Assembly: GCA_043228905.1 (NCBI GenBank)
Contig: JBHGNT010000021.1
Span: forward strand, 3,472,001 to 3,536,000
Direction: 5' to 3'
Origin: Azolla caroliniana
Taxonomy: Eukaryota; Plantae; Polypodiophyta
DNA length: 64,000 nt
Program-made: the position numbers and the translations under genes
Notes under the pieces: generated by a model
Databases searched by the model: none
Told to the model about the DNA's origin: nothing
What the model saw: the letters and a program-made list of their open reading frames with translations, nothing else
Part shown: positions 3,859-49,400 of the stretch, piece after piece
How the letters are laid out: each line of letters starts with the position of its first letter
How positions within the stretch are numbered: position 1 is the stretch's first letter

Positions 3859-5116
3859 TGTATTGTTCCTTTGTGCCCCCCTTTTAGCACGCCCTTTTTA
3901 GCTAAGCCAACCCAAATGTGTACCTTTGTATAAACTATAAATTGAGTAAGAAGTAAGAAGCTAACTAGGTTGGTTTTCATCTCTTATGTGCAGTTCACAT
4001 ATTGGTGGAGAAGCGGGCACCAGTTCCCCACGTCCAAGTATCCACCTCTTCCCCCTCACCTTAGGTTGCCCACTAACTTCTTGTCCCACGAGTTTCTCCA
4101 ATCCCCTTCCTACATGATAGCCCTCCTGTCCCCCACATCAATCAAGTCTAGGTGTCCCTCAGTCCCCAAGAGCGATTGATCTCTATCCTCTTGTAGCCCT
4201 CATGTCCCCCACCTTAACCAAGTCCAGGTGACCCTCAGTCCATAGGATTGATTGATCTCTATCCGCCTATAGCCCTCTTGTCTCCCACCTCTACCAAGTC
4301 TAAGTGGCCCTCAGTCCACAAGAGGGATTGATCTCTATCCGCCAATTGTTAGCTCGTTTTCCGTCACTAACCTCGTCCAAGTGGCCCTCAGTCCACATGA
4401 GGGATTGATCTCTATCCGCCAATTGCTAGCTCGTTTTCCGTCACTAGCCTCGTCCAAGTGGCCCTTAGTCCACAGGAGGGATTGATCTCTATCCTCCAAT
4501 TGATAACTTGTTTTCCGTCACTAGCCCCGTCCAACTATCATCTGATCAGGGTCACCAGTTCCATGGAGATCTCCTCAATGTCGTTGCAGCTCAACTCGGT
4601 GTCCAGTAGATGTTTACGTCCCCATACCATCCTCAGACAAATGGCCTCACCAAACGCCTCAACAAGACCCTCAAGAAGGAAATTGCCGCTTACATTGATC
4701 CATGCCACAAAACCTAGGATCAAATCTTGCCTTTGATCACCCACGCCTACAATACATCTGTATAGGCGTCAACACAAATCAACCCTTTTCGAGCACTCTA
4801 TGGGCGTAACCCTCACCTCCCACTAGAATCATCCATTGATGTACATTCAAAACCTACCAACATGGATACCACTTGGGGGGCTCTATCTCCACAGATGCTC
4901 CCCCTCCTTCAACAAGCATTGCTCCTATTCCTGTTCCTGCTCCTCAGTCTCTTGTTTCTCTCAAGGGGGAAATGTGGTGTGCGTGTGTTCCTTTGTCCCT
5001 TTTAGCACACCCTTTTTAGCTAAGCCAACCCAAATGGGTACCTTTGTATAAACTATAAAATGAGTAAGAACAAGAAGCTAACTAGGCTGGTTTTGATCTC
5101 TTATATGCATTTCACA
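3859..5116 (+). mobile_element. Short-LTR (TRIM-like or internally deleted) Ty3/gypsy element
   Basis: Direct repeats of about 140 bp at 3859-3999 and 4973-5116 (TG...TTCACA). PBS TGGTGGAGAAGCGGG at 4003 is tRNA-Ala-like. A purine tract AAGGGGGAAA precedes LTR2. An integrase-core remnant at about 4532-4830 (SDQGHQF...TSPYHPQTNGL...HAYNTS...PFRALYGRNP) has 3 stops. No clear TSD. Confidence 0.8.
4120..4535. repeat. 76-77 bp tandem repeat (about 5.5 copies) inside the short-LTR element
   Basis: The CCCTCAGTCC...GATTGATCTCTATCC core recurs at 4156, 4232, 4308, 4385 and 4462. Confidence 0.9.
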
Positions 5117-5169
5117 ATGTCAAAATGAATTATTATTTATCATCTATTAGCAAACACAAGCAATTCATA

Positions 5170-6007
5170 TGCACATATGTAATCATGAAAACACATGGGT
5201 ACGTAAGGTTAGTTGGGACCCTTTGCAATGGACGTGGCATGATCCTTATGCGAGTCAAGGAAGCAAAGCCATCCCTTTCTTCCAAGTCATGACTACATTG
5301 GGTTGCCACCTTCTAACCGCTCAAACCGCCCGCAAGCCAACTGCTGCAAAGGTATGGCACACATATCATGTTCCTCATACAATTATCACGAAGTTTTGGT
5401 AGAAAATCTGGACACAACAACATGCTAGGCGAATTACCATGTTCCAATGGCTATTAATACATAAGTCACTACCGGTTGGAGTGTGGCAACATGGGAACCT
5501 TAGCTCTCCTAATTCTATAGTGTGCCCAAATGCAACAAAATCAATCTGACACACTTTGTGGGACTGCCTAGAGACTCATCGAATATGGGGGGGGGGGGGG
5601 GGGTTGGCCGCCTATTGCAAGTATGCTAGGTGCAAGGCACAATCAAGTGGAGAAATGTATGTTGGTTATCATGGTAGGCCCTAGTTGACATATATGAACA
5701 TCATGAAAAGGGGATAACTTTGGTGATAAATGCACAAGAGGTTCTTTTTTCCACCATCAACAATATCCACTCAACTCCTATTAATGTCAAACCTCAAGTT
5801 GTGTTGGAATTGGTCAGCCCAATAACTCTTTGGATTCTATGGAAACAGCGATGTAGACGAGTCTTCTCCAACCAAACCATGCATCCAATAACGTTAATGC
5901 AAGAGATATGGCGTGAATTTGTAGCTATTGTAAAGAGGCAATATGATGGCTCATGGTCGGATCACATAAGATGGAACTATCGTGTCCCTACAAGGATTTG
6001 TATATAA
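5170..6007 (+). mobile_element. Degenerate LINE (L1/Tx1-like) ORF2 3' remnant
   Basis: zf-RVT-like FW*KIW...FQWLLIHKSLPVG...C...HTLWDC...RIW, then LWILWKQRCRRVF. Contains stops and a G-run. Confidence 0.7.
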
Positions 6008-6780
6008 CAATCCGATCTGTAAAATTTTATAACTAATGGAAGAAGTTTTTTTGGAGAAAAAAAAAGAACAATTCATATGCAACACAAAAGTCATCTAGCA
6101 TTTTGTGTAGACTTGATAGGGTGATACGAACTTGGTCGTGTAGTTGCCAACACACTAGGAAGTCTAGAGCGCAAATCCATTTACCTTGTGCTTGTTTCAT
6201 CAACACTTTTTTGCACACAACATTGTACCAACTAGATAAATATTATTTATAATTGAATATTGCAATCAAGGGAGTTTTCAGCATGCCTTCAAAACTAATG
6301 ATATAAATGGCATAGTCATATAGATTGGTGAATTTGTGCTAACCATATAAAAAGCATCTCTTTTTTAACCATTCAAGGTTAGTTGGCTTAGCTATAAAAC
6401 TCAATGAGCAACTTAATGTATGTCGCCAAGTTATTTTATTCCATCCAATTTGAAATGTAATTATGATCCCTTTCCTCTCTCAATGATAGAACAATCCGAA
6501 GTTGTGATCCATTTTCCATGAAGTCGTCTAGAATTCCAAAACTTGGCTAGACTTAGTTAAGAAGCAAACATAATATTGATGAGTCCTTACACAGGGTTTT
6601 CTTCTTCAATTTCGAATATATTGACAATTCATACCCTCGAGTCACCAACAAGATTACAAAGTTACTCAAACTAGTTTGTAATTTGGTTCTTAATAGAAAC
6701 TTGTTTCTCTACAAGTCCTATAATTATGTCAATCTCGATGCTTGTGCAAATGTACATGTTACCTCATGAAGTCATATGTG

Positions 6781-7040
6781 GTCTCTCTCAACTTAGAAGT
6801 TATTGAAAGCCCCATGAGTAAATTTCTAAAACGGATTATTATGCCTCCATTTTTTTCTTGGAGACTCTCAAATTACAACTACAAGTTATGGAAAGCCCCA
6901 TGAGTAAATTTCTAAAAGGAATTATGCTTCCATTTCTTTCTTGGAGTCTCTCTCAAATTACAAGTTAGGGAAGGCCCCCATTAGTAGAGAGCATAAATTA
7001 AGTATCAATTTCTAAATGAGATTACATCTCCATTTTTTCT
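6781..7040. repeat. About 80-85 bp degenerate tandem repeat (3 copies)
   Basis: Recurring AAGTTA..GAAAGCCCCATGAGTAAATTTCTAAA...CCATTTT..CTTGGAG. Confidence 0.8.
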
Positions 7041-7267
7041 TTACCTTATGAAAGGCAAATAATCTAGAATTTTTACGTTATATTATATCAGACATCATGT
7101 ACAATGTTGTTGCAACTAAATTGATCTTTCTTCGTACATTTATTTCCACCATTGATATCAATTATTGCGAAATACATGATAATGCATTATCTATTACCTG
7201 ATAATACATGATAATGCATTATCTATTACCTGATAATACATGATAATGCGAAATACATGATAATACA

Positions 7268-8005
7268 AAATGAAGCAAATTTTCTATAAACATGGAATCT
7301 GAAAATGGACAAATGGTTGATGTTGAAAATGAAGCAGATTTTCTATAAAGATGGTGTTGGAGGGTGAAGCAGTTTTTTATGACTGTCTGAGGAGAGTGAT
7401 TCATTCGATTTTTTGAGGGTGTATATAATATTATACTTTATTATATTTATTGTTTGATGTCTATATGTTAGGATGTTTGATGGAATCTGCAAATGGACAG
7501 ATGGTTGATGTTGAAAATGAAGCAGATTTTCATAAAGATGGTGTTGGAGGGTGAAGCAGTTTTTTAGGAGTGTTTGAGGAGAGTGATTCATTCGATTTTT
7601 TGATGGTGTAGGGGCTGAAGCATACTTTCATGAGGGGAGAAGGAGAGCACATTGGATGTTGGTCATCGCGTCTTCCAATCTCAAGGACCTTCGTAGTAAA
7701 AGATGACATTGTTGATATGGACAACGAAGCACATTATCTATTTCTGACAAGGATGAGTGACGATGGTGTCGGGGGCAGAAGCATAATTTCATGAGGGGAT
7801 CCGGAGAGTAGTGTCATTATGTTTTTTGTATGTACAGGGTTTTGGTGGTCTACGACGAGAGATGGTTGAGGTGGACTTTGGTGGTAATCGGCTAGATGTT
7901 GGATGGGGAAAATAAAACAGATTCTTGTTTGATAAGGATGAGTTGTGAGGTTGGCGGGGGTTGAAGCACACTTCACGATGGGAGAGTAGACGCATTTTCT
8001 TTTTT
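7268..8005 (+). repeat. Degenerate satellite, same family as 43140-44192
   Basis: Recurring GATGGTTGATGT.GAAAATGAAGCA and AAGGATGAGTGACGATGGTGTCGG...CATGAGGGGAT. Confidence 0.85.
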
Positions 8006-8329
8006 TGTTTTATGAGTGTTGATGTTGTGGACTTGGAAGGTTTTTCTTGAGGGTCAACGACAATACATGTTTTGAAGCTTGGAGATTTTTAATGTTTTTA
8101 AGACACAACAACTCAGGCCAAATGTGTTGATGTCATCGGAAGACATTGATTGACTTCAGACATTGGAATTAGTTGATAAAGTGATCACATTACAGGATTT
8201 ATGAGGTTGGTTGATTTTGTAGGCATTTTTGTTGTCCAAGGTTGAGGGCTAATGTGGAAAAAAGAAGTTCGAAAAAACTGGATACTCTGAGATGTTGTTT
8301 ATATGTTGACTATGGTCTTCAGATGACAA

Positions 8330-8710
8330 GGGGCAAAGGAAGATGTGTTTCAGACACTTCTAACTACAAATGTAGCCATTTGGAATGCAATCATGAGAAA
8401 ATGGACTTGTTTTTACATGCTAGAGATTGTTTTTCCTTTACATGTGGTCTCCTAGCTTGCCGTAGCAAAGGCTTGTGGAAGTGTAGAAGCTATTGACAAG
8501 GGAAAAGCGGATATGGCTCTTGTGGATAATGATATAATGGTATTGGGCAATGCTTCAATGGACATGTATGACAAATGTGGTGGGTTTGGAACAGCCAAGG
8601 AAGTGCTGGAAAAGTTTGTTTTTCATTATAACATATGTCCAGCATGGACAAGGCCACAAAGCACTCGATTCATTTGAACAAATGCAAAGCATGGGCATTT
8701 CTCTGATTTG
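8330..8710 (+). pseudogene. PLS-class PPR remnant
   Basis: Frameshifted motif pieces: DVFQTLLTTNVAIWNAIM, KACGSVEAIDKGK, LGNASMDMYDKCG and YVQHGQGHKALDSFEQMQSMGIS. Confidence 0.75.
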
Positions 8711-9029
8711 GATAATGGTATGGTATCATTGTAATTTCTTTGCCTATAAAGATTGGCAAGGGGGGTTTTTTCTTACTTATCTTACCTAGAAAGACTAGCT
8801 AGAGTCATTCGGCATGGCTTTACAATATTTGAAGTAATATTAGCCTATTTTGTACATGGCCTTTGGCCACTTTCATTTTAATACCAATGGAGGATATTTT
8901 TTCAGGAAAAAAAATAAATGCATTATCTATTACCCATACACCCATCGAAGGGCTCCCTCCATTCCAATTTTCCAAACTTGCTGATGTAGAAATACATTTC
9001 CGAGAAAACAATTTCTTTCATCCTTCACA

Positions 9030-9070
9030 TGGTAGCCTGTGATGAGAGGGTTATGGGTTCAAACCCACAA
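9030..9070 (+). other. Possible tRNA-derived SINE head remnant (B-box)
   Basis: GAGAGGGTTATGGGTTCAAACCC resembles a tRNA T-arm/B-box. No cloverleaf or A-box was recognised. Confidence 0.25.
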
Positions 9071-9955
9071 CGTGTTTCACATGTGTGGACATCAATGGTC
9101 ATGCACATTGCTCAAGCAATAAAGATGAAATTCCCATAATAGAATATTAGGGTAATCACTCCCTTTCTGATGGATCAGTAAAGATCTAAATCCATCAAGA
9201 CACGTGAGAAGGTCAAAGATGCTGAGAACATGATTCTAGAAAAGTGTTTGTTTGGTTAATTACAGTATAATTATAGTGTTTGTTTGGAGATAAGCAACAA
9301 GATTAGCCAAGCACGTCTTGAGGTTGAGCTTCTATAGATAACAAAAGAGTAAGTTCCTCTCGCGTAAAACAATGGCAATTGCTAAATATCGACACTAAAA
9401 TGTTGTAACCATGACCCATGGATAAACTAATATACATTACAACCACCCTCCTATTAAAACAGCCCAAACCCACTAAATATGGCAGCTCTTAACAATAATG
9501 ACAAGACTAATCACTCAGAAATCAGATGAATCAAGTAGTTCTCATCAAAAAGTGAAATCTCTTATTCCCTGTTGTATGAGTGCAACAATCAATCTCAAAG
9601 ATAAAATCATTACAAAACAAAATTTAAATGTTCTCTATAGACATGCTACCTAGTTCACATTTGGTACCACAATGACACTAAAAAAAGTTATTGGGCACTT
9701 TGAATGGCATTCTTTAAGCTCCAATACCCATATTGCATGTAGAAATAAAAAGGACAACATAATAAGAAATGTACTTCAATTATGTCCAACTATTCTTTCA
9801 TTGGGAGGAAACTTGTATAACAAAGCTTGGTGTGTATGTATCATCCTTATTTACATTTCAGCACCATCTTGAAAAGAATATCTAAGAAAAATATAGACAG
9901 AATATATTACAAAGATCAAGCATGTCGAGAAGCTATTGGCTATTACTAAAACTTT

Positions 9956-12900
9956 TCAAGAGAAAGCAGGACAACCGTATACTTCAATGCCAGGGGCAGT
10001 GGGGCATGACGCGAATGGACAATTATCAAGATTTGCCCCCCACCACTGAAGAGAGATGTCCTCCCACCCTAAAAATATATATAACATTATCCCCATAAAA
10101 GCAAGTCCTGCATCTAAGCCTCCAGACAACACATAGTTATACCGTTGCCACCATGCTTTTCTGTATCGGAATATGACAAAACTAAAGAGAAACCCCATTA
10201 CACACCAACTGGTGAAATTGACTGCAGTGGCAGGTGGCATCATGCCGGTAGCACCAATTAAAATGGGCATATTGATTAGCCTTATCCATTTCTGATTCGG
10301 AAAACGTCGGCACAATAGCCATACTAAAAAAGGAGCAATTGCCCCAATAACGAAAAACCAATTCACAGAAGAGTAAAGGCCAAGGTCACCAAAAATTCGC
10401 CGTGGACCAATAAGCCCCCATATGACAGATGCATCAAAGAAGACACGATCGCCAGGACATGTCCAAGGACTATTAGAAGGCAATATAGCTTGATCGCATA
10501 TTCCAGGAATATTCTCAATCATATACCATGCTGTTACTAAATAGGATACAGCTGCAACAGCTGTTCCTACCAGCTGCACAATTCAAAACATTTAAGTGCC
10601 ATTTCAATCATACGTTGACCACAGTAATCACACACAACAAAAGAGCATTTGTTCTTTTTGGCTTTTGAGAGAATTTTCTTTGTACTTTTTTCGACAGCAT
10701 TTCATTGTTCTTCATTCAAGAGCATTGCATTTGCTCTTTCTTTGAGTTGCATTTTCATTCATGTATTAAAGCATTTCTTTTGTTTGGTTTTTAAAATGCA
10801 TTTCATTGGTTGCTGGTTCTTTCTCAAGAACATTACTTTGGTTCCTTTTTCGAGAAGGTTTCTGTGGTTCTTTTTTCAACTGCATTTCCTTCTTTATTTT
10901 TTCCACAGCATTTCATTTCTTTTTTTGTGAAAGCATTTCATTCTTTCTTTTTTCTTTCATTTTCTGGGGATAAATGTATATAGATGGATACCTGGGCCAT
11001 GAACATTGCTCGAGGAGGAACTTTCATGTAGTGCCCAAGCTTGAAATCTTGCAGGAATTCAAGTGCTTGTGACATGCTAATATATCCATAAACTTTGAAG
11101 CATACATTAGCGACTGGGTGTCCAGGATAAAGATAACCAATCAAATACTCGGTAATAATGTTGATGCCAGGTGACTGAAAATCATCAACACACACGAGTG
11201 AAATTAGTAAAGAGAAGTAAAGATTTTCCCAAACAAACTAGTGAAAATAGAAGAGAAAAAATATCAATTTCCCCAGCCCATGAATGAGGTCAGGATAAAA
11301 GCATTGTTTTCTCAACATATGAGTCTCTAAAGGATAAAAAGCATTGAAAACCCAAATTGTTTACTTTATTTAATCACCTGATTTGTTGTTGCTCTTATTA
11401 TCCCAATTGGTAGAGTGAATAGAAATGCAATAATACAAGCCAAAATCACACCCCACCACGGCAGTTGCAACTGCTCATTATAGGTCTCACAAGCAGCTAC
11501 TGCAATGCCAATGGTCACAACAAGAATGCCCAAGAACCATGATTGAGGAACTTGCTTATATTGCCTCATAAGACGTGTATGAACATCGACATTTCGAACC
11601 TTGAAAGCAGCTCTGCTCAGCTCCAAAATATCTCTACACATCAACAAATTTACACTATATTGAATGTCCGTTCAAAAGTGTTCATCATCTTAAACTGCAA
11701 CATGTAATATGGTTGGAAAATGAGATTCAACCTCAAACCATAAACCTTTATAACATGTCCTTTGCTCTCACAATAAACTGTCTCTCGCGATTATTGTTTT
11801 ATTGGACTCATTAGTATGGTCAAGAAGCTAAACCTGTTCCTAAAGCCATCTACCATAATTGCCACATAACTTTACCCACTAATGTTGCACAGTTGGTGAG
11901 AATAACAAACTGGTAAAGGAAACAAGAGTCATATAAAATTCACCTGCCATGGAAGAGTATCACATGAACAACAGTGGCACTGAGAGCTGCAAATCCAATA
12001 CCATATGAAAAGACAAAGAAGGTGCTGAGATGTAATGGTCCATAAGCAGAGTAAGCTGCTTGATCGAGCTGGAAATTTGCATCGATAATCTTTGAGATGT
12101 TGTAAGGTTGACCCGATCCAGTAAAGAGCCGGTCTGAGAAGATAGGAAATTTTCTTGCTTCAAAGACATTTGAGAAATAAGTTAATGGAGTGACTATATA
12201 AACAACAAGGACATAGCCAGCTAGGACATTAGCTATGGCAAACCATGGAGAGGCAAGAGGACTTCCAAGATAGGATGATACTGCCGACCAGTCAAGGCCG
12301 ATTGCACCAAACCCAAGGCCAGAGAGACCAGAGCCCAACTGCTGAGCTAATACAGATTGTGGGTATACCCAACAAAGCCATGATAGGGAGGTAAGCATTG
12401 GGAATAGGTATCCTGGTAGAAGATAATATGCAAAACTGCACACCAATGTAAGAGCAAAAAATTGGTTCCTTGTCAATCCTCCCTTGGGCCGATTGTCTTT
12501 TTCATGCAAAGCCCTGTGAAAGGAAAGATTAGTCCATATTAGTGTCGTGATATCTCTAATGCATCAATTTTCTAACATATAGCTTAGTCCCTAATCCATA
12601 AATCCGTTTTCATATCTTTCAGTCTTTAACACATCAATGTGTTAGAGAATGAATGGTCTGAAATATCCATGTCCATCAATCCTCTTTCATATCATTCAGT
12701 TTCTAACTTATCAGAGCATTAAAGAATGAATGGTCTGAAGTATCCATGCTTGTGAGATCTCTAACACAACATTCCTCTTTAATATCATTCAGTCTCTAGC
12801 ATATCAATGCTTTAGAGAATGAATGGCCCAAAGAATCAATGCATTAGAGAGTAATCTAAAGGATCCATCCATTAGAGAATAAATGGCCCAGAGGATCCAT

Positions 12901-14526
12901 GCACGCATTAGAGAGTGATCCAAAGGGTCCACACGTTAGAGAATGAGCAGCCTGACAAATTACCGCATTAGAAAATGAATGATCCAAAGGATCCATGCAT
13001 CAGTGTCTGATCAGAATAGTCCCTCTCTAATGCATTGATCTTGCAGAACTTTCATTCTCTGATACATTCATCCTTTGGAACATTCATTCTTCGAGTTAGA
13101 AACCACAGCTTTTGAATAAATGATATGCTTACCTAAACAAGGAGACTTGTACCAAGTTTGATGGCCACCACATAGTGGCTGGCTCGACAAGATGTGTACG
13201 GAATACGCCCGCCCACCCGAATCCTAGAACCTTTCCAGTTCAACACTCTAACAACTTCAGGCCAAAAAACCTTCTACCAATTACCACAATACACAATACA
13301 AAAGGGAAAATTAACAAAATACCACCCTAAACCCCAATTTCAAATATTTTAAAACATCCCTATGTGCAATTTCCTTGTATCTCCCTGCAAATTCTCTTTC
13401 CAAATGGGTATATTCAGGATCTCCTGAAGAATTGAAGGTATTTTGATCAATTCCCCCACAAACATCTCTATGCTCTATGCCCCTGCAACCTTTCTTTCTT
13501 GTGGGGGATTTCAGGAAGAATGAGATGCATTTTGGTAAGAAATAAAAGTGATCTGATACTCAAAATCTTTCAATTCAAAAGAGAAACAAAGAAAAAGCAA
13601 AAGCAAAAGTGAGTTAGTTATGTAACCTGTGTAGTAGCAACAATAATAAAGGCGACTGCAAAATTGAGGGTTTTCTTGTAAAAAATCTTCACAACAGTAA
13701 CGATATGAATAGCATAGACACTACCAGCACCCGCATTAGCAAAGATAGTGATAAGAACATGTTCTTTCATATTGAATGGGCCTGGATTAAGAGAAAATCG
13801 CCAATTTGTTCCTGGAAAGCGCATCTTCCGTGTTGGCAATGTGGCGGCCATGAAGCGTCCCAGAGGTAGAACAGCAATTTGGGCAGACACTGCCGTTATA
13901 CTCAGTGGCTCAGTGCGAAACCAAAAAAATTGGTTCAAAACGGAAAGCACAACACATGAAAGAAGACCTAATGTCCACATTCGGAATGTAACAACCGGAA
14001 TCGAAGGGTCGTCTGTGATAGGAACTGTTAATGCTACTTCTTCGATAGGCGATTGATCCTTCTCATACGGAAGCTCTAGTTCAAATTCTTCCTGTTCTTC
14101 CTCATAGTTTTGTTTTCCTTGCTTCTCCTGCCCCTCTTGTTCTTCTTCTCTTTCGACTTCCCAACTCTGTTTTGCCAAAAAGGGAATATTTTCTGGCGAG
14201 CGATAAGATCTGCCCATATTTTGTGTTTCCTGATGAGTAAAGGATCTATCCGTCTTCAGAACTGCCATGGAAGAAAACTTACTTGGATCATTTAACAAGG
14301 AGAAAGAGAAAAGGCATAACTTTTGACCTCCAAAACCAGATCTAATTCCCAACCATATGACCACATCATAGTATTAATGTTTCAGAAAAACAACCCAGAT
14401 ACATATACATACATAAATATATGCAATAATTCAGAAAACAAAACACATATATATAAATGTATGTATGTATATAGAGGGAGAGAGAGACAGAGAGAACTTA
14501 CGTGGGACAGACCTTCCATCCGCCAT
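9956..14526 (-). CDS. OPT: Oligopeptide transporter (OPT family), 794 aa, 7 exons
   Basis: Exons 14526-14502, 14261-13627, 13230-13133, 12513-11944, 11633-11378, 11174-10992 and 10573-9956, all GT-AG and in phase. Signature motifs [20 protein letters not shown] and [11 protein letters not shown]. The N-terminus [11 protein letters not shown] comes from a 25-nt first exon. Confidence 0.95.
12600..13092. repeat. Intronic ~30-bp minisatellite ending in an inverted copy (OPT intron 3)
   Basis: Direct units of GCATTAGAGAATGAATG..CCAAAGGATCCAT, then reverse-complement units at about 13024-13090. Confidence 0.75.
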
Positions 14527-17479: not shown

Positions 17480-18226
17480 TTAGTTGTAGGTTCCGGGCAT
17501 GTGAGAAGGACCTGGGACATCGTTGAGAGGATGGGTGGTACAAGGAGGGGTTGAGCCAACAATATTAATGTTAGGTGGTGGTGTTGACACATTTTTATAC
17601 TTTTCAACATCGATGTTATCCTTCCGTGAAGGTGGTGGAAAGCCATGTCGCTCACACCACTTACACTTGGGCATACTTATATGAGAAAGCTCTTGGTTGC
17701 AATGTCCATGATGATGGCGAGTTGCTCCAATGTTTAAAATACCATGTTGTGGAAATTGCTTTGTTGATATATCATCATATGATATGATTGAAGCACTTGG
17801 AGGTACAAACGATGATGGACTTGGATGTCGACTTTCACACTTCCACATATGAGAATGCTTGTGAACATGGTCCTTATGGTGATGGTGGGGTTGATGATGA
17901 TGAGGATGAGGAGGATGAGGATGAACCTTCTTGAACGATCTCTTTAAAGTATCATATTCCATGGACTCATTAAGTTTTTTAGGGCTCTTTGTAATTATTA
18001 TATCATTCATAGTGATAATATTACTAGAACTTGCAAGATGCGATAAGTGGGGATGACAATGAGGACGATGAAGAAAAGGTACACTGTTTAAATAAATATG
18101 TTTCAAAGGCTTATGATGCCCAAGGGAGTGATGATGATGATGCCTTTTCATCAATGTTTTCATGTTCTTCTTCTTCTTGTTCATATGCATCATAATAGTA
18201 TGTTTGTGGTAATGTCCTCCACCCAT
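17480..18226 (-). CDS. Candidate histidine-rich orphan protein (248 aa from first ATG; frame open to about 18480)
   Basis: About 1 kb stop-free frame in AT-rich DNA. ATG in AAATCATGG context. TATAAAAAG at 18349-18341. About 41 His in 248 aa. No family recognised. Confidence 0.5.
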   Translation of the reverse strand: MGGGHYHKHTIMMHMNKKKKNMKTLMKRHHHHHSLGHHKPLKHIYLNSVPFLHRPHCHPHLSHLASSSNIITMNDIIITKSPKKLNESMEYDTLKRSFKKVHPHPPHPHHHQPHHHHKDHVHKHSHMWKCESRHPSPSSFVPPSASIISYDDISTKQFPQHGILNIGATRHHHGHCNQELSHISMPKCKWCERHGFPPPSRKDNIDVEKYKNVSTPPPNINIVGSTPPCTTHPLNDVPGPSHMPGTYN

Positions 18227-19119
18227 GATTTCAATGAAGAAAAAGGCCAACTTGATGAAGGCGCAGAAGTATTTAGTTAGTCCTTTAACTATTATAAAAG
18301 TTTGTGAGTTGTTCTCTATGTAGTGTAGAAGTATAAGTGTCTTTTTATATCCGTTTTTTCCCTTTCCCTTTGCCTTGCAGTCCACTCCATTCCATTCTTT
18401 GCCTTGCGTTGCACTTTCACATCCTTTAGAGTCACGATATCTTTTTCTTTTTTCCTTCAGCTTTTTCACCCAGCGATGCTGTTATTTATTTGGCTCGTTG
18501 ACTTGTGATGAGTGCTAGTGTAATGAAAGTGATGCCAATAAATAAGTTTTGAAAACCAAGAAACCAAAAGTCATTCAAACAAGGGGTGATACAATTGTTT
18601 TAAACTTCTATTTTGAAGTTCACACATACACATACATGTGTACCCAAATGTGGAACCATGGGTATTCATCCCAAAGTGGTGAACAACATGTGCTACATAA
18701 GATGTAATGTTACAATACAACAAAACAAGCGAAGAGATGAAATGAAAATGGTGTGCAACATGCACATTTTTACATCAATGTGGTTTTTAAGTGTTGATGC
18801 TAAATGTTGGCATTAAGTTTATGATACATGTCTTTGAATGGTACAAAATTGTCATTATCTTTGAATGATGAATTTGAGGTTAAGATTTCAAAGATATTAC
18901 TTAAGGCCGGAGTCACAACGAATGGGTGAGGCTTATGATGACGATGTTACGTCATCTCATCAATCGAAAGAACAACGGATATCATATTTCATGAAGTGAA
19001 ACAAATATAGAGATGTTGTGAAGTCACTATACTAGAACTCATGTTATAAGGGTACCATCCATGATATTATTAGTGGGAGATCTCAAACCCAAGCTAAAAA
19101 ATGCACGAGGTTACTAGTG

Positions 19120-19922: not shown

Positions 19923-24391
<4,469 letters not shown>

Positions 24392-37800: not shown

Positions 37801-39689
37801 TGACGACAAAAGGAGATATACAAACGAAATATTTTGTGTGTTATGTACAAAAATCTGTTACAAATGCAAAAGTGACAATGGAACATTGGCATCTACTAGT
37901 ATTTCAACACACCTTGTTTGTTTTATATGGATTGAAAATGTTGCAAGAAATAAAATTGCATTGATTTTGTGTACTTTGTGTATAAAACCATGTCTAGTTG
38001 TGTGACCCCCTTGAATCACAAGAGCGAAGCACATGTCGCTCAAGCATAAAACTCCCCATGTCTCTTCTCCTCTAAATTTTTAATTCAAGATGATTACAAG
38101 TCTCAATCGCAAATTGCATGGCCTTTGAGATCTCCTAGATGTTAGTAATATCTTGAAAAGCAGACATCTCATGACGAAATCAATACACCCCTTGCATGCA
38201 CCATCTATCAAAAGTAAAATGGGGGGGGTGGTTTCCTTCACTACCACTATCCCAACTTTGAGAAATTATTAATATCACAATGTTTGAAGCCACTTCCTTG
38301 TGATGACTCTCACATCCCATAAAAGATCACAAATGTACAAAAGTTTGATGCGATTGTGGAGGAAAGAAGGATTAAAGCGAATCTAAATATTCAACCGAAT
38401 GATTTTCTCTAGAATCTTCCTAGTCAAGTTGTCACTTATTCTTATTTCCATTGCATAAACACATTTTAAATCGGACACATATCCATACCTTAATTATGTG
38501 GCATCACCATTCTTAATCCAAATTTGTTTTCTTGCCCACCATATTATAATGTTTGAAGAACTTTGATTCGAGATCAAACTTTTATGTAATCACTATCTAT
38601 AATATAGGTAAAATCTACTACAACTATTTTGATATTAAAAAAGTGCATGCTAGAAAATGGTCATAAATGAATAACCTCATGCATTTATGCGTAAAGAGGA
38701 TTATAACTATTGTGACCCTTCCTACATATTCAAATCACTTTAGTATTAATGTAGCTCTTATTCCTTGATTTCAATATACTTCAGAAATAGCAAGTTTGTG
38801 ATTTCAAAACATGATGTGAGAAATTGAAACTTCACTCCCTTTAAAAATACAGTATTTTTAAGCCTACCATACGCTCAAAGAGTTAATCTTTGCTTTTAAT
38901 TTATACTCACATTCAGCATAGTGATCAAGGAGTATGATAAGACAAAGAAACATAGGAAGAGAGAAATATGGATTAACGGGAATAAACTGATGAACACAAT
39001 CAATATGTCTATATATGCAAGTCCTAGGAACAGACGAATATGCAAAGATACTAGGTTTTCTATAGGGATACCCCCTTACCAAGATTCCTCGTCCAAAATG
39101 TAGTGAAATGTTTGGCTCATATTTTCCTAAGGTTAAGGTGTAATATAGCCTAAGTGTTTTTTTTAGATTGAGTGTGAAATGCAACCAACTATCTATGATA
39201 TGTCAATATATGTAAACATTTAATTAGATAGCACAATCATCAAGGATTTGATGTTCTACACAAGATACAAAACATAAACAATTAGGATTGAGCATCAAAC
39301 TATTGGTTATGTTGCATTGACTTCTTCATTGTTGGTGCTTTTTTCTCCTCATTATAAGTGTTTCGTATATCATTTCATGGTTTTTTGTAATATGCAAACA
39401 TAACTTGTACGACACTTTTTTTTGCCCAAAAAAACATTACTCGCATTAGTTAGCAAACAAAGTACATCAAAGTTCAACCATTAAGATGCACAAAGCCTAA
39501 CCTCAGAGTGATCTATATATCCAACAACTCCAAAATTCAACAAAACTCATGCCGATCTTCCCCTCACAAATTTGATCATAATCCCCACCCCCTCATTTAC
39601 AACAAAATTATCCCACCTACTCTTTTACAACAAAGTTATTTGTGTACCACAACTATAGTAACTTGTACCGCAACTATACATATTTACAT

Positions 39690-39990
39690 CTCATGTCCAC
39701 TAATGGGAGCCTTGGTGGAAACAACCACCTGGGTGCTTGGTAGTTCCATTTAGGCCTTGTCAAAGATTTGACTATCATAGGAGAACCGCCCCATTTAGCA
39801 AAAACTTTGACCGTGCTCTTTCTGCTTCGTTTGATTCCCCCTGAATTGAGCCATACCGTCCACACAACCAGGATACTAGCGCGAACTAGATATTTAACAA
39901 CGCCTCGCCGCTTATGAGCTTTTGTTGTTGAAAAACAAACTTACTACGCCTGGTCCAGATGTGCCAAACTGATAAGCACGCCACCATCAT
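39690..39990 (-). mobile_element. LINE ORF2 C-terminal remnant related to 5170-6007
   Basis: SVWHIWTRRSKFVF...KWNYQAPRW parallels LWILWKQRCRRVF...RWNYRVP. Confidence 0.55.
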
Positions 39991-42900
39991 CCATATCTCC
40001 TAAAAAAATGCAGAGTTTGTGCCAAGGTCGCACACCAACACATTGGAACACACTGCCACCCTATACTATAAATCCATGACCACGTGGGTTTAATTATTCC
40101 ACCCATCCTTCCTCTGTTAACTTCAAACCCTGTAAGGACCCCCAAACAACTTTCCCATTCACACTGAACTTGTACCACACTTCATTCGTGTGAACTTATT
40201 GCTTTATTTTTTGGGGGAGGAAAAAAAACATCTAGTAAGTTTGCACAAGAGACGTGGGTCACTAAAACAACATTGCTTGTTGATTTGGGTCCATGAACCA
40301 TTTGTAATTGTAGTGCTTTTATAAAATTATTGGATTATAAAATCACTTAAGCTTACAAGTGAATTACCAAATGAATGCATTGCGTCCAAGAAGAGAGATA
40401 TTGTCATAATTGAAGAAGCTTCGAGGGAATGTGGTGTGCTCCCTTGGGCCCCAACAATTGAATATTTTATCACGCCTATAAATGGGATGAAAACTAGTTA
40501 GGCCCTATATTGGAAGATATTCCACTAAACGAACAAGAATGAAAGAGATATTATTCCCCATTGTATGAGTATAAGGATATCATGCATAGTTTTTTATTAA
40601 CCAACAGTTTATAATATAAGAGTTACAAATGTTTGAATACAAACTCACTTGCGTCTCTAAGCTAAGAAACATAGTTTGAAGGAAGCACCAGATCAAAACA
40701 TTGGACGTAAAGAATATTGTGCCAATGCGTGAATGATTGAGTCCAAGGATCTTAGTTCTTGAATTGTTGACATCAAAGTGAACATATTTTTAAATATTCC
40801 TTGAACAATTTTAAATCAAATATAATTTTCAAAATGAGATTTCCATCCAATCATATAGCCTTTCTATATCTAATAGGAAGAAAAATAAAAAAATATTCAT
40901 TGCTCATAAATGTGTATCATAAATATCTACACAATATGCTTACCCTAGAATTGTATGCTATCCTTTTCTCGAGATATTGGTTATTGTGCTTTTCTTTGTT
41001 ATTCTCACTACTTGCCACTTAAGTTTTACTAATCTCGAGGGTTTAAAAAAAAAAGGTTGTACATGTTTTGAAAAACTATACATTATATTTACATTGCAAA
41101 TATAGGAAAAGTGTGTTTAATTCATTGAAGAAGTGTTTTAATTGTTATTTATCCACATGTTACAAAGAAGATCTAATGAAACCTCAAGAACAATGAGAAA
41201 GGATTTGCTCGTCTTCTCTCCTTTGCCAATTTGCACCATGCAAAATAACATAGTATTCTTATTGCCACCAAAATAATGACTTCCAAAAGCTACTCTTCGG
41301 GTGAAACTTTAAAAGTTCACCCATATGGTTGATGTATCTCTCATGACTCGTTAAATACATTCCAATCATCACAAGTTATTTCCCATTACTTGTACTCAAG
41401 ATAGCTCCAATTACATCATTGCACCACATACTCAATGCATGGATTCTAAACATGACTATGCCCTAAAATAACACCCTCTTTTGACAACTTTGGCATTTAG
41501 GACAAAGTAATGCACCAAAATATAATGCCCTTTTTTATCATTTAGGCCATGTTACATGAGCTTGCATTACCACACTGCAAAACATAGCCTTGAACTATAT
41601 TAATATGATGAGAGACAAATAATTGGATTTAAGTTCTTGATTTAATGGTTGGTTGGTCACTATAAGGAGAATTGTTTCATTGTAGTGCTTTATACATGAA
41701 CCTTTCAAACATCCATGTCCACTAATGTGCTTACTCCAACTCTTAATCCATGACATTTTGGCACTCCTATGAAGTGAAGGATCCTAAAATTTCAAGTTGA
41801 GTTCAATGTCACGGTTGAGTATTGCAAGTGAAATGCAATGACATGGATGAGATAGAGGTTTTTTTGCAGCGGTGTTGCAAATATACATGCGTGCGTCTGA
41901 AACGGGAGTGGAACCTCCGGGGGAATTGAACTAGAGAGGATGGGTGTGAGTGAATGCGAATATACATGTGTGAAAGGTGACTCCAAAAAGTTTATAGCCC
42001 TTGTGTGTTTATATATGTAAGTCAAAAGGTTAAGATGTTTTAGTGTATTTAATAATGTTTAAGTCTGATAAAGTATGACGGAATTATCTTATATAAGAAC
42101 ATAAATGAGTTTAAGGATATATTTTAATATGCAAGGCCAACATGTCTGAAGGAAGGTGTATATGTTGCTTGTTAGTGTAAGCATTAACATGTAAGTGTGT
42201 ATGTATGCATCAATATATGAGAATGTGCTAATGTGTTTATGTATGTTTGGATATGTTATGTGTATGTATATTTGTCTTGTATGTGTGTTGTGTATGTGCT
42301 TGTTTTTAAGTTAACATGTAGGTTTAGGAAGTGACGTGCACTTAAATTTTAAAGTGAGGGTTTGTGTAAGAGAATAAATATATATATGTGGATTTGTATG
42401 TTCATGGTTTGGGGAAAAGAAAAGAGTGTAAGTCTTGTGGGTAGGGTCCTAATAACTTCCCTTTTCCTTTTTCTAAAGTATAAAATGATGGGTTGAGGGC
42501 AGACAACGTGGTCAACCAACATCATTTGAAGATGCCAACAACAGCAAGCGACAACAACAAGTGTAATAGTTGTCACTACTAAGCATGGTGAGTATGGAAT
42601 GGTGGCGGTTGACTTTGGTTTGAGCAATTCCCTCAATTATGAGGAAAGCATGAATCACGAGCATTCCTTGAACTAGAGGAAAGTTCAAACTAGAGCTTTC
42701 CTAGAACCAAAGCAAAACTCAAATCAGAGCTTTCCATGAAGTTCAAGAAATGGTCAAAGGAGAGAGAGTGTTTATTGCTCAAAGGATGGGTGGGTGGGTG
42801 GGGGGGGGGGTGTTCCTTTGCGGAAAGTCTCCTTTCCACGTGTAAAAGTCTCCTCGAAGAGAACCGTGGAGCTTTGAAAGCTTGAAGGTGACCTTCATTT

Positions 42901-43139
42901 GAGGAAATTTATTTTGAAGCATTTTTCGAAATTAGTTTCTAAACCCTTAAATTTGTTTTAGTTCGTAACGTTTTGCTTAGATCTTGGAATCGCGTTTTGG
43001 AAAATCCGTCACTACCCTCACAACAATTCCCTTGCATGATGACACAAATCCTTTGCTATGAAATTCTGAGATCCTCATTTCATTGAATTCAAGGCAATTC
43101 TAACATAACTTAATAGGAAGTCCACATTAATTTTTCATT

Positions 43140-44192
43140 AGGATAGTAGCTTCAGTAAGTTTTTTGTAGATACAGGACTTTGGTGGTAGACAATGATATG
43201 GTGATGTGGTCATGGAAGCATTTCTATTTGGTAAGGATGAGTGATGATGTTGTAGATTTTTATGAGGGGATGAGGACAACACATTCACTCTAATTTTGTT
43301 TGTACAAGATTTTTGCGGTGAATGAACAGATGGTTGATGTGGAAAATGAAGCACATTTTATTTTTGTAAAGGATGAGTGACGATGGTATAGGGGGATGAA
43401 GCATAATTTCATGAGGGGATTAGGAGAGTAATCTCATTCTATTTTTGTAGGTACATGTCCTTGGTGGTATACATCGAGATGGTTGATGTGGTCATTGAAG
43501 CAAATTTGCATATTTCATTTTTTTAAGGATGAGTGAACCATGGACTTGGGCAGTAAACAAACAAACGATTGATGTGGAAAACGAAGAATATTGTCTATTT
43601 TGGTAAAGGATGGGTGACGATGGTGTCGGCTGAAGAAGCATAATTTCATGAGGGGATCAAGAGAGTAGTGTCACTATGTTTTTTGGTACAGGTTCTTGGT
43701 GGTATAAATCAAGATGGTTGATGTGGACATTTAAGAAAATTGTGTATTTTTTAAGGATGAGTGAATCATGGTGGTGTTGGGGGCTGACGCAGTGTTGGGG
43801 GCTAACACAATGTTTTTATGAGGGTATGAGGATAGCACATTCACTCTATTTTTGTTTGTACAGGACTTCAGTGGCAAACGAACAGACAATTGATATGGAA
43901 AACGAAGAACATTGTCTATTTTGGTAAAGGATGAGTGACGATGGTGTCGGTGGAAGAAGCGGAATTTCATGAGGGGATTGAGAGAGTAGTGTCATTATGT
44001 TTTTGTTTGGTATCTACAGGATTTGCTATGCTATGACGAGATGGTTGATGTGGACATTGGGGGTAATCGGCGACATGTTGGTTGGGGAAAAGGAAGCATA
44101 TTTTCTTTGTTTGATAAGGATGAGTGATAACGTTGTTGGGGGCTGAAGTAGACTTTCATGAGGGGACGAGGAAAATAGAAGCATTTTCTTTT
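43140..44192 (+). repeat. Satellite array (about 7 units, mostly 135-175 bp, alternating variants)
   Basis: GATGGTTGATGTGG-type cores at about 43196, 43330, 43478, 43568, 43713, 43889 and 44040. The last ~300 bp is colinear with 7710-8005. Confidence 0.9.
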
Positions 44193-44321
44193 GCATGTGA
44201 TTGTTGTATTTGACGAGGTATATTCTGAATTAATATATCCAGAAGTCTGCGATTCAGAACTTCAACGCAATGCAAGTACACACATGTTGAAGGAAACAAT
44301 TGTAGGGGCAGCAAGGAAAGT

Positions 44322-45330
44322 TTGGTATTTACAAATGCAACACCCAATGATTATGTTGTTTTTGTGCTTTTGAAAGCTTGTGCTAAGCTGAAAGTTGTGG
44401 AAAATGGCCAACAGATACATGCACATATTTGTGGGAATAGGGAAGTGGAAAGTAATGCTTTTTCTTTAATGGACATGTATTCAAAATGTGGTATGATAGA
44501 TCAAGTCAGAGATGTATTCGATAAGCTCTCAGTTCGTGATGTGGTGTCATGGAATGCATTAATAGCACGACATGGTCTTCATGATTGATATTAGGAAGTG
44601 TTGGAAGGTTTTGAGCATATGCAATGTCAAAGGATCATCCCAGATGAATAGTTGATGTCATGTTGGCTCATTTGAAAAAGCAAAAGAGGAGCAAGGTGAG
44701 GACGTGTTGATCAAGTCAAGAAGATGCAACTTTTGGAGATGAAGTCACATGTGCATGCATCTTGAAAGCTTGTGGGTGCATTAGATCCGCAAACAAGGGC
44801 AACGAGATACATTTCGATGCTGAGAGGAAAGGGCTTTTTCGAAAAAACCAACTTGCTTGAAATACACTAGTAGAGATGATTCGAAATGTGGCTTCCTAAC
44901 AAAAGCAAAGGCAGTGTTTGACAAACTTCCCATATGTGATACAGTGACATGGAATACATTGTTCATAGGTTATGTGCACTATGAGAATGACGAGGAGGCC
45001 CTTAATGCTTTTGAGCAGATGCAAAAGAAGAGAATCTCTTCTAATTCTATCACATTTGTAGGTACTCTAAAAGCTTGTGCTAGCATTGGAGCAATAGAAA
45101 AGGGTAGAGAAATGCATGTAAAGATCGAGGAGATGGGGAGGCTAAAGAGAAACCAGGTTGTTGGCAAAGCATTGCTTGATCTATATGCTAAGTGTGGAGT
45201 CTTAGAGAAAGCATTTGATATGCTTCCAACTCGAAATATAGTCTCTTGCAATGTTCTGATTACAGGATATCATCAAGTTGGAGAAATTGAAAATGTGTTT
45301 TTTGTATTTGACCAGATGAGAGGAAATTGA
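44322..45330 (+). pseudogene. PLS-class PPR pseudogene
   Basis: LLKACAKLK...GQQIHAHI, LMDMYSKCG...VFDKLSVRDVVSWNALI, VFDKLPICDTVTWNTL, ITFVGTLKACASIGAIEKG and ALLDLYAKCG, interrupted by stops and frameshifts. Confidence 0.9.
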
Positions 45331-46394
45331 GTTTTACCAAAGCCGGTTGGAAATGCTTGTAGTCATACAACCATGGTAGATAAAGGTCAAATATATTGTG
45401 AAGCCATGGTGATGAGCAATTATTACATATGCTGATGAGCATGTGAGAACGAAAGAATAATGACGTAGTATCTATCCACATATGGATACATGGATGAACA
45501 ATGAGAAACTACAATTTAGTGTTTAAGCTAATGATCACATGAGATGGAAAGAAGATTCTTGTATGTGTTCACCGTTCTTTGTAGTTTTATACTCTGAGTC
45601 TTTGAGTTATTTTTTTCTTTTTTATTGGCCTATCACGGTGTCGTGAAGAATTTCAGCCAGAGGCGGAAACCGGGAAATATTGGCTACATCGGTGGGGTGC
45701 ACCATGTGCACTCACCCTTGTGTAATTGTGTGAATAATAGGGGTTAAGTTGGGATGAAGAATCCCATGTAAATCGGGATTTATCCCACATTGTAATGCAT
45801 CCCTCTCCTTGTTCTATAAAAGGAAGGGATGGTCCCTTGTAGAAGGGTTGCCCGTTTTGTGTTAGAGGGTATACCATTAGGTTTAGAGTTAGTTTTCTTC
45901 TTCTTCTTCTTGGCGGGGAAGTCGACCGTTGAGGGCTGTCTCTGCTAGGTCTCCTGTGCAAGACCCCACTCCGCGTGACGAGCCTGAGAGCTCCCCGGAC
46001 GGCGGCTTGGCAACAGACTATTGCTGTAACCTACCTACCCTACCATGGTCCGGCTCGAAGCCGGGGTTGCATTCTTTCCCTTGTAATACTTACATTTGCG
46101 TTTGTCTGTGCATATTCGTGTCTCTGTTGGTGTCGGGCGCTTCCCCTTTCCTGCGTTTCCTGTACATAAGGGCGTGAGTCGGGTCGGCTTGTGTGTGTGT
46201 GTGTGTGTGCGCGCGCGAGTCGGTGTCAAGCGCGCGCTCCCTCTCTTTCTCTCTCTCCCTTTGGTTGCTTCCGGAGTGCTTCTGGGATGCCCCGGAAACG
46301 GTGAAGTACGACTTCCTACGCTCCGTGACTCCCTAGTCCAAGACCCCTGTGGTCCCGCCTTCCTCCACGCACGCGCGTAACAACGCGATATCTT

Positions 46395-46411
46395 TGGTGA
46401 ACCCGACGTGA
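46395..46411 (+). promoter_or_regulatory. Primer binding site, tRNA-Trp
   Basis: TGGTGAACCCGACGTGA is the complement of the plant cytosolic tRNA-Trp 3' end (UCACGUCGGGUUCACCA, from recall). Confidence 0.85.
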
Positions 46412-49400
46412 AAGGCAGCAAGGGAGGATGGAGTCGGAAGACGACGACCTCGCGGCGATGGTGGCCGAAGTGGTGTTGGAGTCAGCACGAGTGGTGATGA
46501 GGCGAGAAGCAGTGCAACAAGCGGTTGAGCGAGTGGTCGAAAGAGTCGGCCGTTTCAATGGGGACAAAGTCCCATCTTACTTGGAAGCCTACAACGCGGA
46601 AATGGAGGAGCGAGACGTGGACGAAGCGTTGAGGCTGGAATTCTTCTGTCGGGCTGTCGCCGTCCGTATGCACGCGTAAGTAAAGGAGCTCCGACAAGCT
46701 CATAGTTCGTGGGAGGCCTTTGAAGAGGCGCTCCTGCAGGCATATGGAGGACGGCGGAAGAGCCGGGGACGACACGACTTTGACTAGTGGGTCGCATTGG
46801 CAAAGACCCACCGGGGCTCGGCTCTCGGAGCGGGAACAAGGTTTGGTGGGGACGGACAAGGTCCTATTGTTCGTCAGGTCGATCGACCGAGCGGAACGGG
46901 AGGCCATCGGGATGGAGCTCGAAGATGATGACGGAGTAAATGGGCTTACGAAGGACTGGTCGAAGGTCGGAAGGGTGTGCCAACGGCTAGACGATGAGCG
47001 AGCCGAGAAGGCTAAGTGGAAGACGCGCGACGGCTTGCCATCATAGTGGGAAGAGGCCGAACGGCAAAGGGAGCTGGCAAGGGTCAACGTTGGGGCCAGG
47101 ATTGCGGAGGCGTACACAACTCTCGAGGCGATGCTCGAGGAAGAGGAAAGATCGAGGCCCCAAGCTGAGACCGAGGAGACGGTCTTGCCCCACGAGATGG
47201 CGGAAGATCGGTACCACGGTACCACGGGAGAGGGTGCGGAACAAAACGCCCTCTCGACTTGCGGAGAATTGCCAACCGAGGACAGGGTCGAGAGCGGAGA
47301 AGAACCCTCCACACGGATTCCGGAGACTTCGGCGGTCATGCCCGTGTGCCGTCATGAGGCCGGAGAGAAGGAAGGCGCCGACGAGGAGTCCTGGCACGAT
47401 GCCAACGAAGAGGGATGGGAAACGGCCTGCGAGGAGGCCAAGGATGGAGGCGGCATGGGAAGATCGACATTCCGATTCGGATGGAGCAGAATTCGGTCGT
47501 CGATCGTTCGATCGGGGCCGTATTCGGCATGAAAGTGCCGATACGGAAGAGGGTGCGGGACGAGCGGTCCTCTTTTACATGGGGAGAAAGACCGACCGGG
47601 CGAAGGTCGGGAATTGGAAGGGAAGTGGTCAAGGGTTCAGAACGAGTTCGGAGAGGTCGGCACCAGAACCGAAACTACGGATATTGGAGAACCAAGCCCA
47701 GGCGGGGCTTGGTTGATCACAAACCAGATGCTTCTCACCATACGTACTTGGGAGCAGTACCCCGAATGAGCGTCCGCAAATCGTTACGGGACGGAAGCCC
47801 CACGTCCTATCCGGAGACTTCGGTAGTTTGGCCGACGTGGCAACATGAGACCGAAAGAGATGGAGGATGGAGGCGAGAACGCGAAGAGGAGAGAAACGAC
47901 GAGTTCGGGAGAAGTACAAGGGATGAAGAGGAGAACGAAGACTGGTCCTACAGGATCCCCACACCAGTCCGGAGACCCCGGCAGTTCGGCCAACGTGGCA
48001 ATGTGAGACCTAGGGAGAAGGCTGGTGGCGACAAGAGAATGGGACCCAACAATCTGGAGAAGGACGAACGGACCCGGACGAGAACCGGGCGGAGCGGACT
48101 CCCGGATGACCATTCCGGGAGGGAGGAAGAGAGTAGGCCTACGAAGAGGCCGAGGAGACGGTACGTTAGTACCACGGGAGAGGGTGCGGAGTAAACCGCC
48201 CTCTCGGCATGCAAAGAAGGAAGACCCGGGATAAGGGTCAGAGATATGGCAAGCTCGAGGAGGATCCTTCACACCGGTTGTACAGAAACCGGCGGTCGGC
48301 CCGAGAGCCGATGCGAGGCCTAAAGTGACGAACAGTGGCGGCGAGGGGACGAAGGCAAAGGGCTACGGATGGGCGGTCTACGGAAATCCTCACACCGATC
48401 CGGCGGTCGGCCGGAGAGCCGGCTTGAGTCCTATAGGAAAGGACGATGGCGGCAGGTGAATGTGACCAACAGAAGAGAAAGGCGAAAGCAGAGTGGAGCA
48501 GCTGTGACCTTACACACACCGATTCTAGAGACTCCGGCAACCAACGACAAGAGGAGGAGTGAGACCTAGAGTAAGGGACGGTGGCGGCGGCAAGGCGGGA
48601 AACCGAAGCTAGAAGGGGAGGTCCCACGAAGACACTCACACCCATCCGGCGGTTGGCCCGAGTGCCAGCGTGAGTCCTATAGGGGAGATCAGTGGCGACA
48701 GGAGAACGTGATCGGACGACAGGAGGTGACGAATGGCAAGGAGGTATGAGGCCGACAAGGTGGCTACGGACCATCTCAAACCTTCCGGCGAGGTGAGTGG
48801 GCGTAAGGAAGTCCGGTCCTACGAGATCCCCACACTTAACCAGAGACTCCGGCAGTTCGGCCAACGAGGCAACATGAGACCGAGAGAGAAGGTTGGTGGC
48901 GGTGGGACACGGGACCTGACTACACGGAAGACACGAGGAGAGTCTGGGAGGGACTCAAACAAAAGACACCTGGATCTCGGCAAGCGACGAAACGATGACC
49001 GGTCCTATGGGACCCTCACACTGATCCGGAGACCCCGGCAGTTCGGCCAACATGGCAACGTGAGACCTGGGGAGAAGGATGGTGGCGGCAGGGAACGGGA
49101 CCCAACGACACGGGGTAGCGGATCGGGAGTCGGTAAGACGGGGCGGACGAAGTGCGAAACCCTCACCGGCCGGTTACGGTTTCGGAAGTTGCCGGTAGGG
49201 GCAAACATGGGAGGTGTGCTGGGCCGAAAAGGCACACCGGGGACGGAACAAGTGTCTTGCAAGTGGCCATCGTGGGCCGGATCGAAGCGTGACTACTGGA
49301 CGGTGTTCGGCACGGGCGGTGCCGAACAAAGGAAGCGGAAGACGGCACAAGGGAGGTGCCGGGAACGGGGTGACGGGTGCCTTGTGGACTGCACAGGGTC

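Follow-up and report, generated by a model that had tools for sequence, protein, structure and literature searches.

Two phenomena relevant here are already known, the capture of host fragments by non-LTR elements in Drosophila and the formation of template-switch LINE chimeras in mammals and Magnaporthe. The telomeric LINEs of Drosophila have captured host fragments that include nxf2 in TART-A as well as piwi and aub (PMC7785250, PMC13534243), and template switching has produced mammalian chimeras of U6 or mRNA with L1 (PMC13174262) and a tripartite chimera in Magnaporthe (PMC2104539). For plants, gene capture is documented in DNA transposons and in LTR elements (PMC13317346); the section of that review devoted to it lists no plant LINE case, and its main text has 0 occurrences of 'LINE' and 'non-LTR' as whole words. 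Our analysis of a 64-kb stretch of genomic DNA from the fern Azolla caroliniana (the window) identified two loci, at 7181–8934 (locus 1) and 43137–51345 (locus 2), that are in all probability 5'-truncated LINE copies whose 3' UTR is composed of a repeat, variable host-gene fragments, a terminal motif and an A-run, with capture plausibly by template switching. The literature searched contained no dispersed L1-type LINE of plants whose 3' UTR bears a repeat together with serial, spliced cargo of kilobase scale, and no plant LINE with cargo internal to its 3' UTR, although supplements or Repbase could list one.

The capture of nxf2 by Drosophila TART is the closest precedent. The Drosophila telomeric LINEs resemble the fern element in being non-LTR elements with host fragments in a non-coding part, in the amplification of these fragments and in their repeated independent capture. 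Their fragments measure 140–235 bp, derive mostly from piRNA genes and are telomere-bound, whereas the fern LINE is a dispersed L1-type element whose pieces reach ~1.1 kb, come from several unrelated donors strung together and have been spliced between copies. The mammalian and Magnaporthe chimeras also fuse sense cellular RNA to a LINE with target duplications, and double switches have been proposed for them, but in those descriptions the cellular piece sits on the 5' side of the LINE part and single insertions predominate, in comparison to the fern units that have LINE sequence on both sides of the cargo and form multi-copy subfamilies. L1 3' transduction is similar in that LINE RNA mobilises sequence downstream of ORF2 with an A-run and a target duplication, but there the host sequence lies beyond the end of the element while the fern cargo lies before the terminal motif (PMC13317346). 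Maize Bs1, TRIMs, Pack-MULE/CACTA elements and Helitrons are likewise plant elements with fragments of several host genes, but these are LTR or DNA elements (PMC13317346). Finally, ME1 of maize and sorghum is an L1-clade element with a short conserved 3' end before the poly(A), but it folds there into a conserved stem-loop, for which no counterpart was found in the fern tail, and the passages on ME1 describe no captured cargo (PMC3747384).

Local alignment within the window showed 79.7% identity over 306 columns (E = 1e-68) between 7712–8003 and 43890–44192, confirming the initial annotation, in which 7710–8005 was reported as colinear with about 43885–44192. The common array end proposed there, GCATTTTCTTTT, was present in the window only at 7992 and 44181, and the same-strand arrangement also held, as all 14 matches to a repeat-unit profile in the 64 kb were on the + strand and fell only within 7303–8008 and 43137–44196. 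The array had originally been called a satellite, which does not apply in the usual sense, as TRF reported no array and the unit is degenerate and present in few copies; it is ~150 bp in length (~140–190 bp), with anchor motif spacing mostly of 136–189 bp. The tandem-repeat part of the LINE 3' UTR, 5'-truncated at both loci, occupies 7267–8005 (+) at locus 1, with 92–94% identity to outside contigs L001, L002, L008, L009 and L011, and 43137–44192 (+) at locus 2, as delimited by the profile and by single-copy depth that ends at 43137. Decayed coding sequence was ruled out as the nature of the repeat, which has no long frame; canonical G-quadruplex motifs numbered 0 in 6 arrays, and viral contigs gave 0 matches to the repeat core and no ORF2 relative.

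Searches by tblastn with 120 relatives placed PPR matches in the window only at ~8225–8740 and 44238–45426, both on the + strand. The first PPR-alignable codon lies 220–325 bp past 8005 and 91–148 bp past 44192, which bears out the earlier observation of decayed PPR sequence shortly behind both arrays and on the same strand. The sequences are of the PLS type (Pfam PPR_2, E = 1.4e-19) with a broken array that lacks the C-terminal part, and their best named relatives are from Adiantum and Ceratopteris (40–52% identity), which marks the DNA as that of a fern. The two PPR cargos had been described as independent, and they are indeed different paralogs whose longest local DNA match is 29 nt; the further suggestion that the unit drives PPR birth was not upheld, every PPR piece seen being broken. 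A processed pseudogene of a PPR gene was rejected given the LINE repeat before the PPR sequence, the LINE tail after it, the mixed donors and the multi-copy state.

Outside the window, 14 metagenome contigs (L001–L014) were found with the 21-base repeat core. In 6 of the 14 the repeat comes immediately after the end of an ORF2 (L002, L003, L004, L005, L011 and L013); at most 5 of these are independent, as L002 and L011 share a 98% flank. Both repeat types are represented, since L003, L005 and L013 are of the locus 2 type and L002 and L011 carry the ORF2 end among contigs matching the locus 1 repeat. A zf-RVT domain was detected in L003 (E = 1e-10) and L004 (E = 7e-9), and L003 contains 2.1 kb of ORF2 with two frameshifts that is 76–82% identical to four proteins of 1454–1458 aa with endonuclease (PF03372), reverse transcriptase (PF00078) and zf-RVT (PF13966) domains. 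Compared with solved structures, in which other clades are unrepresented, these four relatives were closest to human LINE-1 ORF2 (E = 3e-61), against 1e-18 for R2. The repeat is very probably part of the 3' UTR of an L1-type LINE; neither window locus extends up into ORF2, and 5' ends differ among copies, indicating variable 5' truncation.

A terminal motif was found behind the cargo in 5/14 contigs (L003, L005 twice, L007, L012 and L013), at a distance from the ORF2 stop to the tail of 1904 nt in L003, 1412 nt in L013, and 992 and 1859 nt in L005. The same motif ends two cargo-free relatives in the window, neither of which belonged to the training set of the terminal-motif profile (E = 0.052 and 0.61) and neither of which has repeat or cargo. 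The relative at 5161–6081 (+) is 5'-truncated, with an ORF2 stump at 5190–6069, a ~60-nt 3' UTR and a 13-bp target duplication (5161–5173 and 6069–6081); that at 39417–39999 (−) comprises an ORF2 end and a ~250-nt 3' UTR, with no convincing target duplication (best 9 nt). As both cargo-free ORF2 stumps end in this motif, it constitutes the native 3' end of the clade, and the sequence between repeat and motif consequently lies inside the element. The terminal sequence is conserved as in LINEs with a stringent-type 3' end, and the conserved stem-loop of such ends was not found, with 8 folds no better than shuffles (z from −0.82 to +1.56). With four terminal-motif tails in 64 kb, the clade is presumably very abundant, its 3' end being conserved but devoid of a hairpin.

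Locus 1 is a 5'-truncated LINE copy with an 18-bp target duplication, an A-run and the terminal motif. The left copy of the duplication (7181–7198) is an exact match to the right copy (8917–8934), directly behind the A-run; among random window pairs taken as a control, 395/400 gave at most 14 nt and the other 5 draws were the same 18-bp repeat. At the 5' junction, 7199–7266 (+) is made up of short flank copies (a 32-bp unit present 2.5 times at 100%; families D3 and D8) with an extra copy of the 18-mer at 7213–7230, and probably represents end-joining filler. These filler copies are perfect whereas the locus 1 cargo is decayed, which can be interpreted as a recent insertion of already eroded cargo. 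Behind the repeat and on the same strand follow the type-1 lead cargo (8006–8329), for whose donor no protein relative was found, PPR piece a (8330–8467), which is common to L012, L014 and L008, and PPR piece b (8468–8740), which comes from another PPR gene and is not in L012. Two PPR donors are joined at 8467/8468, and at 8468 loose contig ends continue into ordinary PPR sequence. The LINE 3' tail, which includes the terminal motif and the A-run (8907–8914), occupies 8815–8916 (+) and is 83–88% identical to L005 and L012. The unit recognised in the initial annotation is real but extends further 3' than given there, to 8916, between the 18-bp direct repeats. No empty site was present among the 15 of 52 joints listed, and 7000–9100 contained 3 weak inverted pairs, none at either end of the locus. 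Locus 1 lies ~1 kb downstream of the last exon of an oligopeptide transporter gene.

Locus 2 is a second LINE copy, split by an LTR insertion. Its repeat is followed by the type-2 lead cargo (44193–44341, +), for whose donor no relative was found, by a decayed PLS-PPR tract (44342–45426, +) and by further 3' UTR sequence (45427–45638, +), of which 45555–45604 is weakly alignable with L003. The PPR tract stops ~70–97 residues before the C-termini of its relatives, retains ORFs of 119 and 168 codons, and is absent from the sister copies L003, L005 and L013; it stands in place of a stretch present in L003, with L003 sequence shared on both sides. An LTR-element complex (45639–51251) flanked by ACGG (45635–45638 and 51252–51255) lies within the LINE tail, and the uninterrupted site was recovered in six contigs of run X2. 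The 3' tail with terminal motif and A-run resumes at 51252–51345 (+; 79–80% to L003 and L013), 51254–51338 aligning with the L003 tail, and the unit, correctly recognised before, thereby runs beyond the LTR insertion to 51345 and past the 3' limit first given to it. The search for target duplications as shared boundaries, suggested with the initial annotation, yielded 18 bp at locus 1 and none at locus 2 nor at L013; a 14-of-16 look-alike at ~41420 was dropped, as it lies in single-copy DNA.

Depth was obtained from contigs of three DNA runs (X2, X3 and X7, with three organism labels) aligned at 80%. At locus 1, summed contig depth was 17 in the flank, 311–1847 in the body and 12780 in the last bin for X2, 11, 210–1617 and 9956 for X3, and 21 (right flank), 51–1193 and 10217 for X7; these sums do not equal copy number, and ordinary PPR paralogs contribute to the PPR bins, although non-PPR bins were raised too. 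Behind 8914, 50 (X2), 75 (X3) and 62 (X7) contigs continue into A/T-rich, unlike sequence, the loose ends lying behind 8912–8918. At locus 2, X2 depth was 17 in the flank and 445–1849 in the body, raised over 43137–45640. By contig depth both loci are multi-copy along their whole length with single-copy flanks. The earlier proposal that repeat and PPR move as a unit holds. Contigs of X2 and X3 bridge the repeat and locus 2-type PPR with ~14% differences, indicating that the locus 2 combination is a subfamily, and the two are also joined, at ~90%, in a 1870-nt contig from a run whose RNA nature is a guess; a search of sequencing runs listed none recorded as RNA that contains the sequence.

The cargo between repeat and tail was highly variable among the outside contigs, 2 of which end within the repeat, leaving 12 informative. 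PPR-derived cargo was found in 4/12 (L012, PPR_2 E = 2.6e-8; L014; L008; and weakly L005), the locus 1 lead alone in L002 and L010 (2/12), the locus 2 lead but no PPR in L003 and L013, Cse1 in L007 (E = 4e-27), and the upstream region or start of a P450 gene in L001, L011 and also L008, which share one junction in three assemblies and include ~550 nt upstream of the ATG. With PPR in just 4 of the 12, the repeat is not PPR-specific as had been supposed, most outside copies having Cse1, P450 or unassigned cargo. Among unbiased contigs PPR accounted for 2/4 identified donors, one of them weak (33.9 bits), which is too few to claim selection. Donors of both lead cargos and of the L006 cargo were not found (atlas matches <0.9), and no donor gene was found for any cargo. 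The outside contigs have a coverage of 1–5, so that misjoins are possible inside the 99%-identical repeat; short-range junctions and the window loci are independent of these and stand regardless. L002 and L011 have the same flank and different cargo. In L001 (425–2690) the repeat immediately precedes a P450 gene that has introns and appears intact, and this arrangement represents either the locus from which the P450 cargo came or a join made in assembly. In L005 (oriented 1060–1967) a PPR-like piece stands between two tandem terminal motifs that differ in subtype, and L014 (oriented 600–1005) has two type-1 leads, of which one retains and the other lacks an 88-nt GT-AG segment.

Comparison of the copies revealed indels of at least 30 nt in 16 alignment rows that correspond to 8 distinct events, and 3/8 were GT-AG segments absent precisely from the window copies (background for GT-AG ends 0.66%; P ~2e-5). 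The intron-like 88-nt segment is kept in L014 and missing from locus 1 at 8290/8291; a 99-nt stretch that is itself PPR coding sequence is kept in L012 and missing from locus 1 at 8339/8340; and a segment of 103–110 nt is kept in L003 and L005 and missing from locus 2 at 44275/44276, the L013 version being without the AG. These precise losses show passage through spliced RNA. A gap of ~300 nt in an X9 contig had no fitting GT-AG ends by eye and was left uncounted, X9 and X11 being only guessed to be RNA.

The capture step may have been template switching between LINE RNA and other RNAs, the chances for and against being about equal. ORF2p would start at the terminal motif or A-run of LINE RNA, jump to a cellular mRNA, pre-mRNA or other LINE RNA and then back into the repeat, leaving a fragment in the 3' UTR in sense orientation. 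A chimera of this kind would retain ORF2 and tail; it could be transcribed, undergo splicing at genuine or cryptic sites and be recopied as a subfamily, and repeated rounds might add, swap and erode cargo. PPR sequences would be likely to recur, as they form the largest gene family and an on-board PPR piece would offer homology for the next switch. Template switching is favoured because identified coding pieces are in sense (6/6, or 4/4 without the two window-only pieces chosen in the initial annotation) and because of PPR-to-PPR switching; against it, the intron-like segment of L014 and the ~550 nt upstream of P450 fit DNA or unspliced read-through equally well. These two features would be accounted for if cargo entered the same LINE as DNA, through gap repair or replication-fork switching at 3' UTR breaks, and was then amplified and spliced by retrotransposition, a mechanism described for DNA transposons and proposed for Pack-TIRs (PMC8277862). 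We consider such entry rather unlikely, as sense orientation holds for each of the 6 identified coding pieces and no identified cargo is transposon DNA, which is often expected of genomic templates; the latter is a weak point, several pieces being without an assigned source. Alternatively, transcription of the same LINE could have read through its 3' end into the flank as far as the next tail stump, which then primed copying, with later deletion of the inner tail. The order of L005 (repeat, cargo, tail, PPR-like piece, second tail), the frequency of tails and the position of the L001 repeat upstream of a full P450 gene agree with this, but L001 is perhaps an assembly join, no inner tail exists at the cargo joins in L007, L008, L001, L011 or locus 2, and the stretch replaced by the locus 2 PPR is embedded in sequence that locus 2 and L003 have in common on either side; read-through is accordingly judged improbable.

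The two interpretations offered originally, that the repeat acts as promoter or leader for a PPR subfamily or that it belongs to a Pack/Helitron vehicle for PPRs, find a basis in the PPR sequence behind both window copies on the same strand and in the one contig of a guessed-RNA run that joins repeat and PPR. Both were abandoned as highly improbable: in 6/14 contigs an L1-type LINE has the repeat just past its ORF2 stop, PPR is confined to 4/12, and locus 1 has an 18-bp duplication and A-run with no terminal inverted repeat at its ends. Helitrons leave no target duplication and have TC...CTRR ends and a subterminal hairpin; the duplication and A-run of locus 1, together with the lack of a hairpin signal in the tail, argue against one here, and Pack-MULE or Pack-CACTA elements were rejected on the lack of terminal inverted repeats and on the 18-bp length of the duplication, which lies behind an A-run. 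A single old local duplication of repeat and PPR, named at the outset as an outcome that would undo the proposal, could be suspected because the two copies are separated by 36 kb, share a strand and are 80% alike, yet it has next to no probability. Flanks (no better than shuffles) and PPRs do not align, both loci are multi-copy between single-copy flanks, and each is nearer to unlinked copies (94.5% for locus 1, 91–92% for locus 2) than to the other locus (80%); the two are separate copies.

A LINE that carries and amplifies kilobase-scale host fragments in its 3' UTR would add a route for gene-fragment shuffling, and such cargo may inflate or reshuffle the very large PPR family of the fern. 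PPR proteins without editing domains reportedly number ~700 in Azolla and ~600 in Salvinia, as annotated from ORFs of at least 300 nt (PMC6786969). As locus 2 alone has two such ORFs, part of this PPR excess could be LINE cargo, if the genome is of that kind. For early land plants, retroposition has been linked to the expansion of PPR genes, with no LINE vehicle mentioned in the passages concerned (PMC13386178). A far-reaching and doubtful extension would be a 'Pack-LINE', an active fern LINE whose 3' UTR cassette repeatedly captures, recombines and splices PPR sequence, which might supply a real share of the water-fern 'PPR genes' that lack editing domains and sometimes new PPR arrays, and might couple LINE silencing to organelle RNA-editing factors via shared small RNAs.

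The remainder of the window contains gene exons for a 2OG-Fe(II) dioxygenase (1019–2776), the oligopeptide transporter (9956–14373) and GAPDH (20785–23536), and a stop-free frame of 333 codons at 17480–18481 (−) with no Pfam match. Direct repeats of 136 bp (90%) at 3864–5116 enclose a 76-bp tandem array and an integrase remnant recognised by eye, giving a small, LTR-like structure. LTR elements occur in the window from 45.6 kb on; in the element at 45639–51251 the 3' LTR is missing an inner stretch, and 50445–51231 is an inverted, deleted copy of the element's own start. Further downstream, a 793-bp direct repeat with 99.9% identity (56192–56984 and 62679–63471) surrounds a gypsy-type pol frame of 1155 codons, and 56192–63471 is a very young LTR element.
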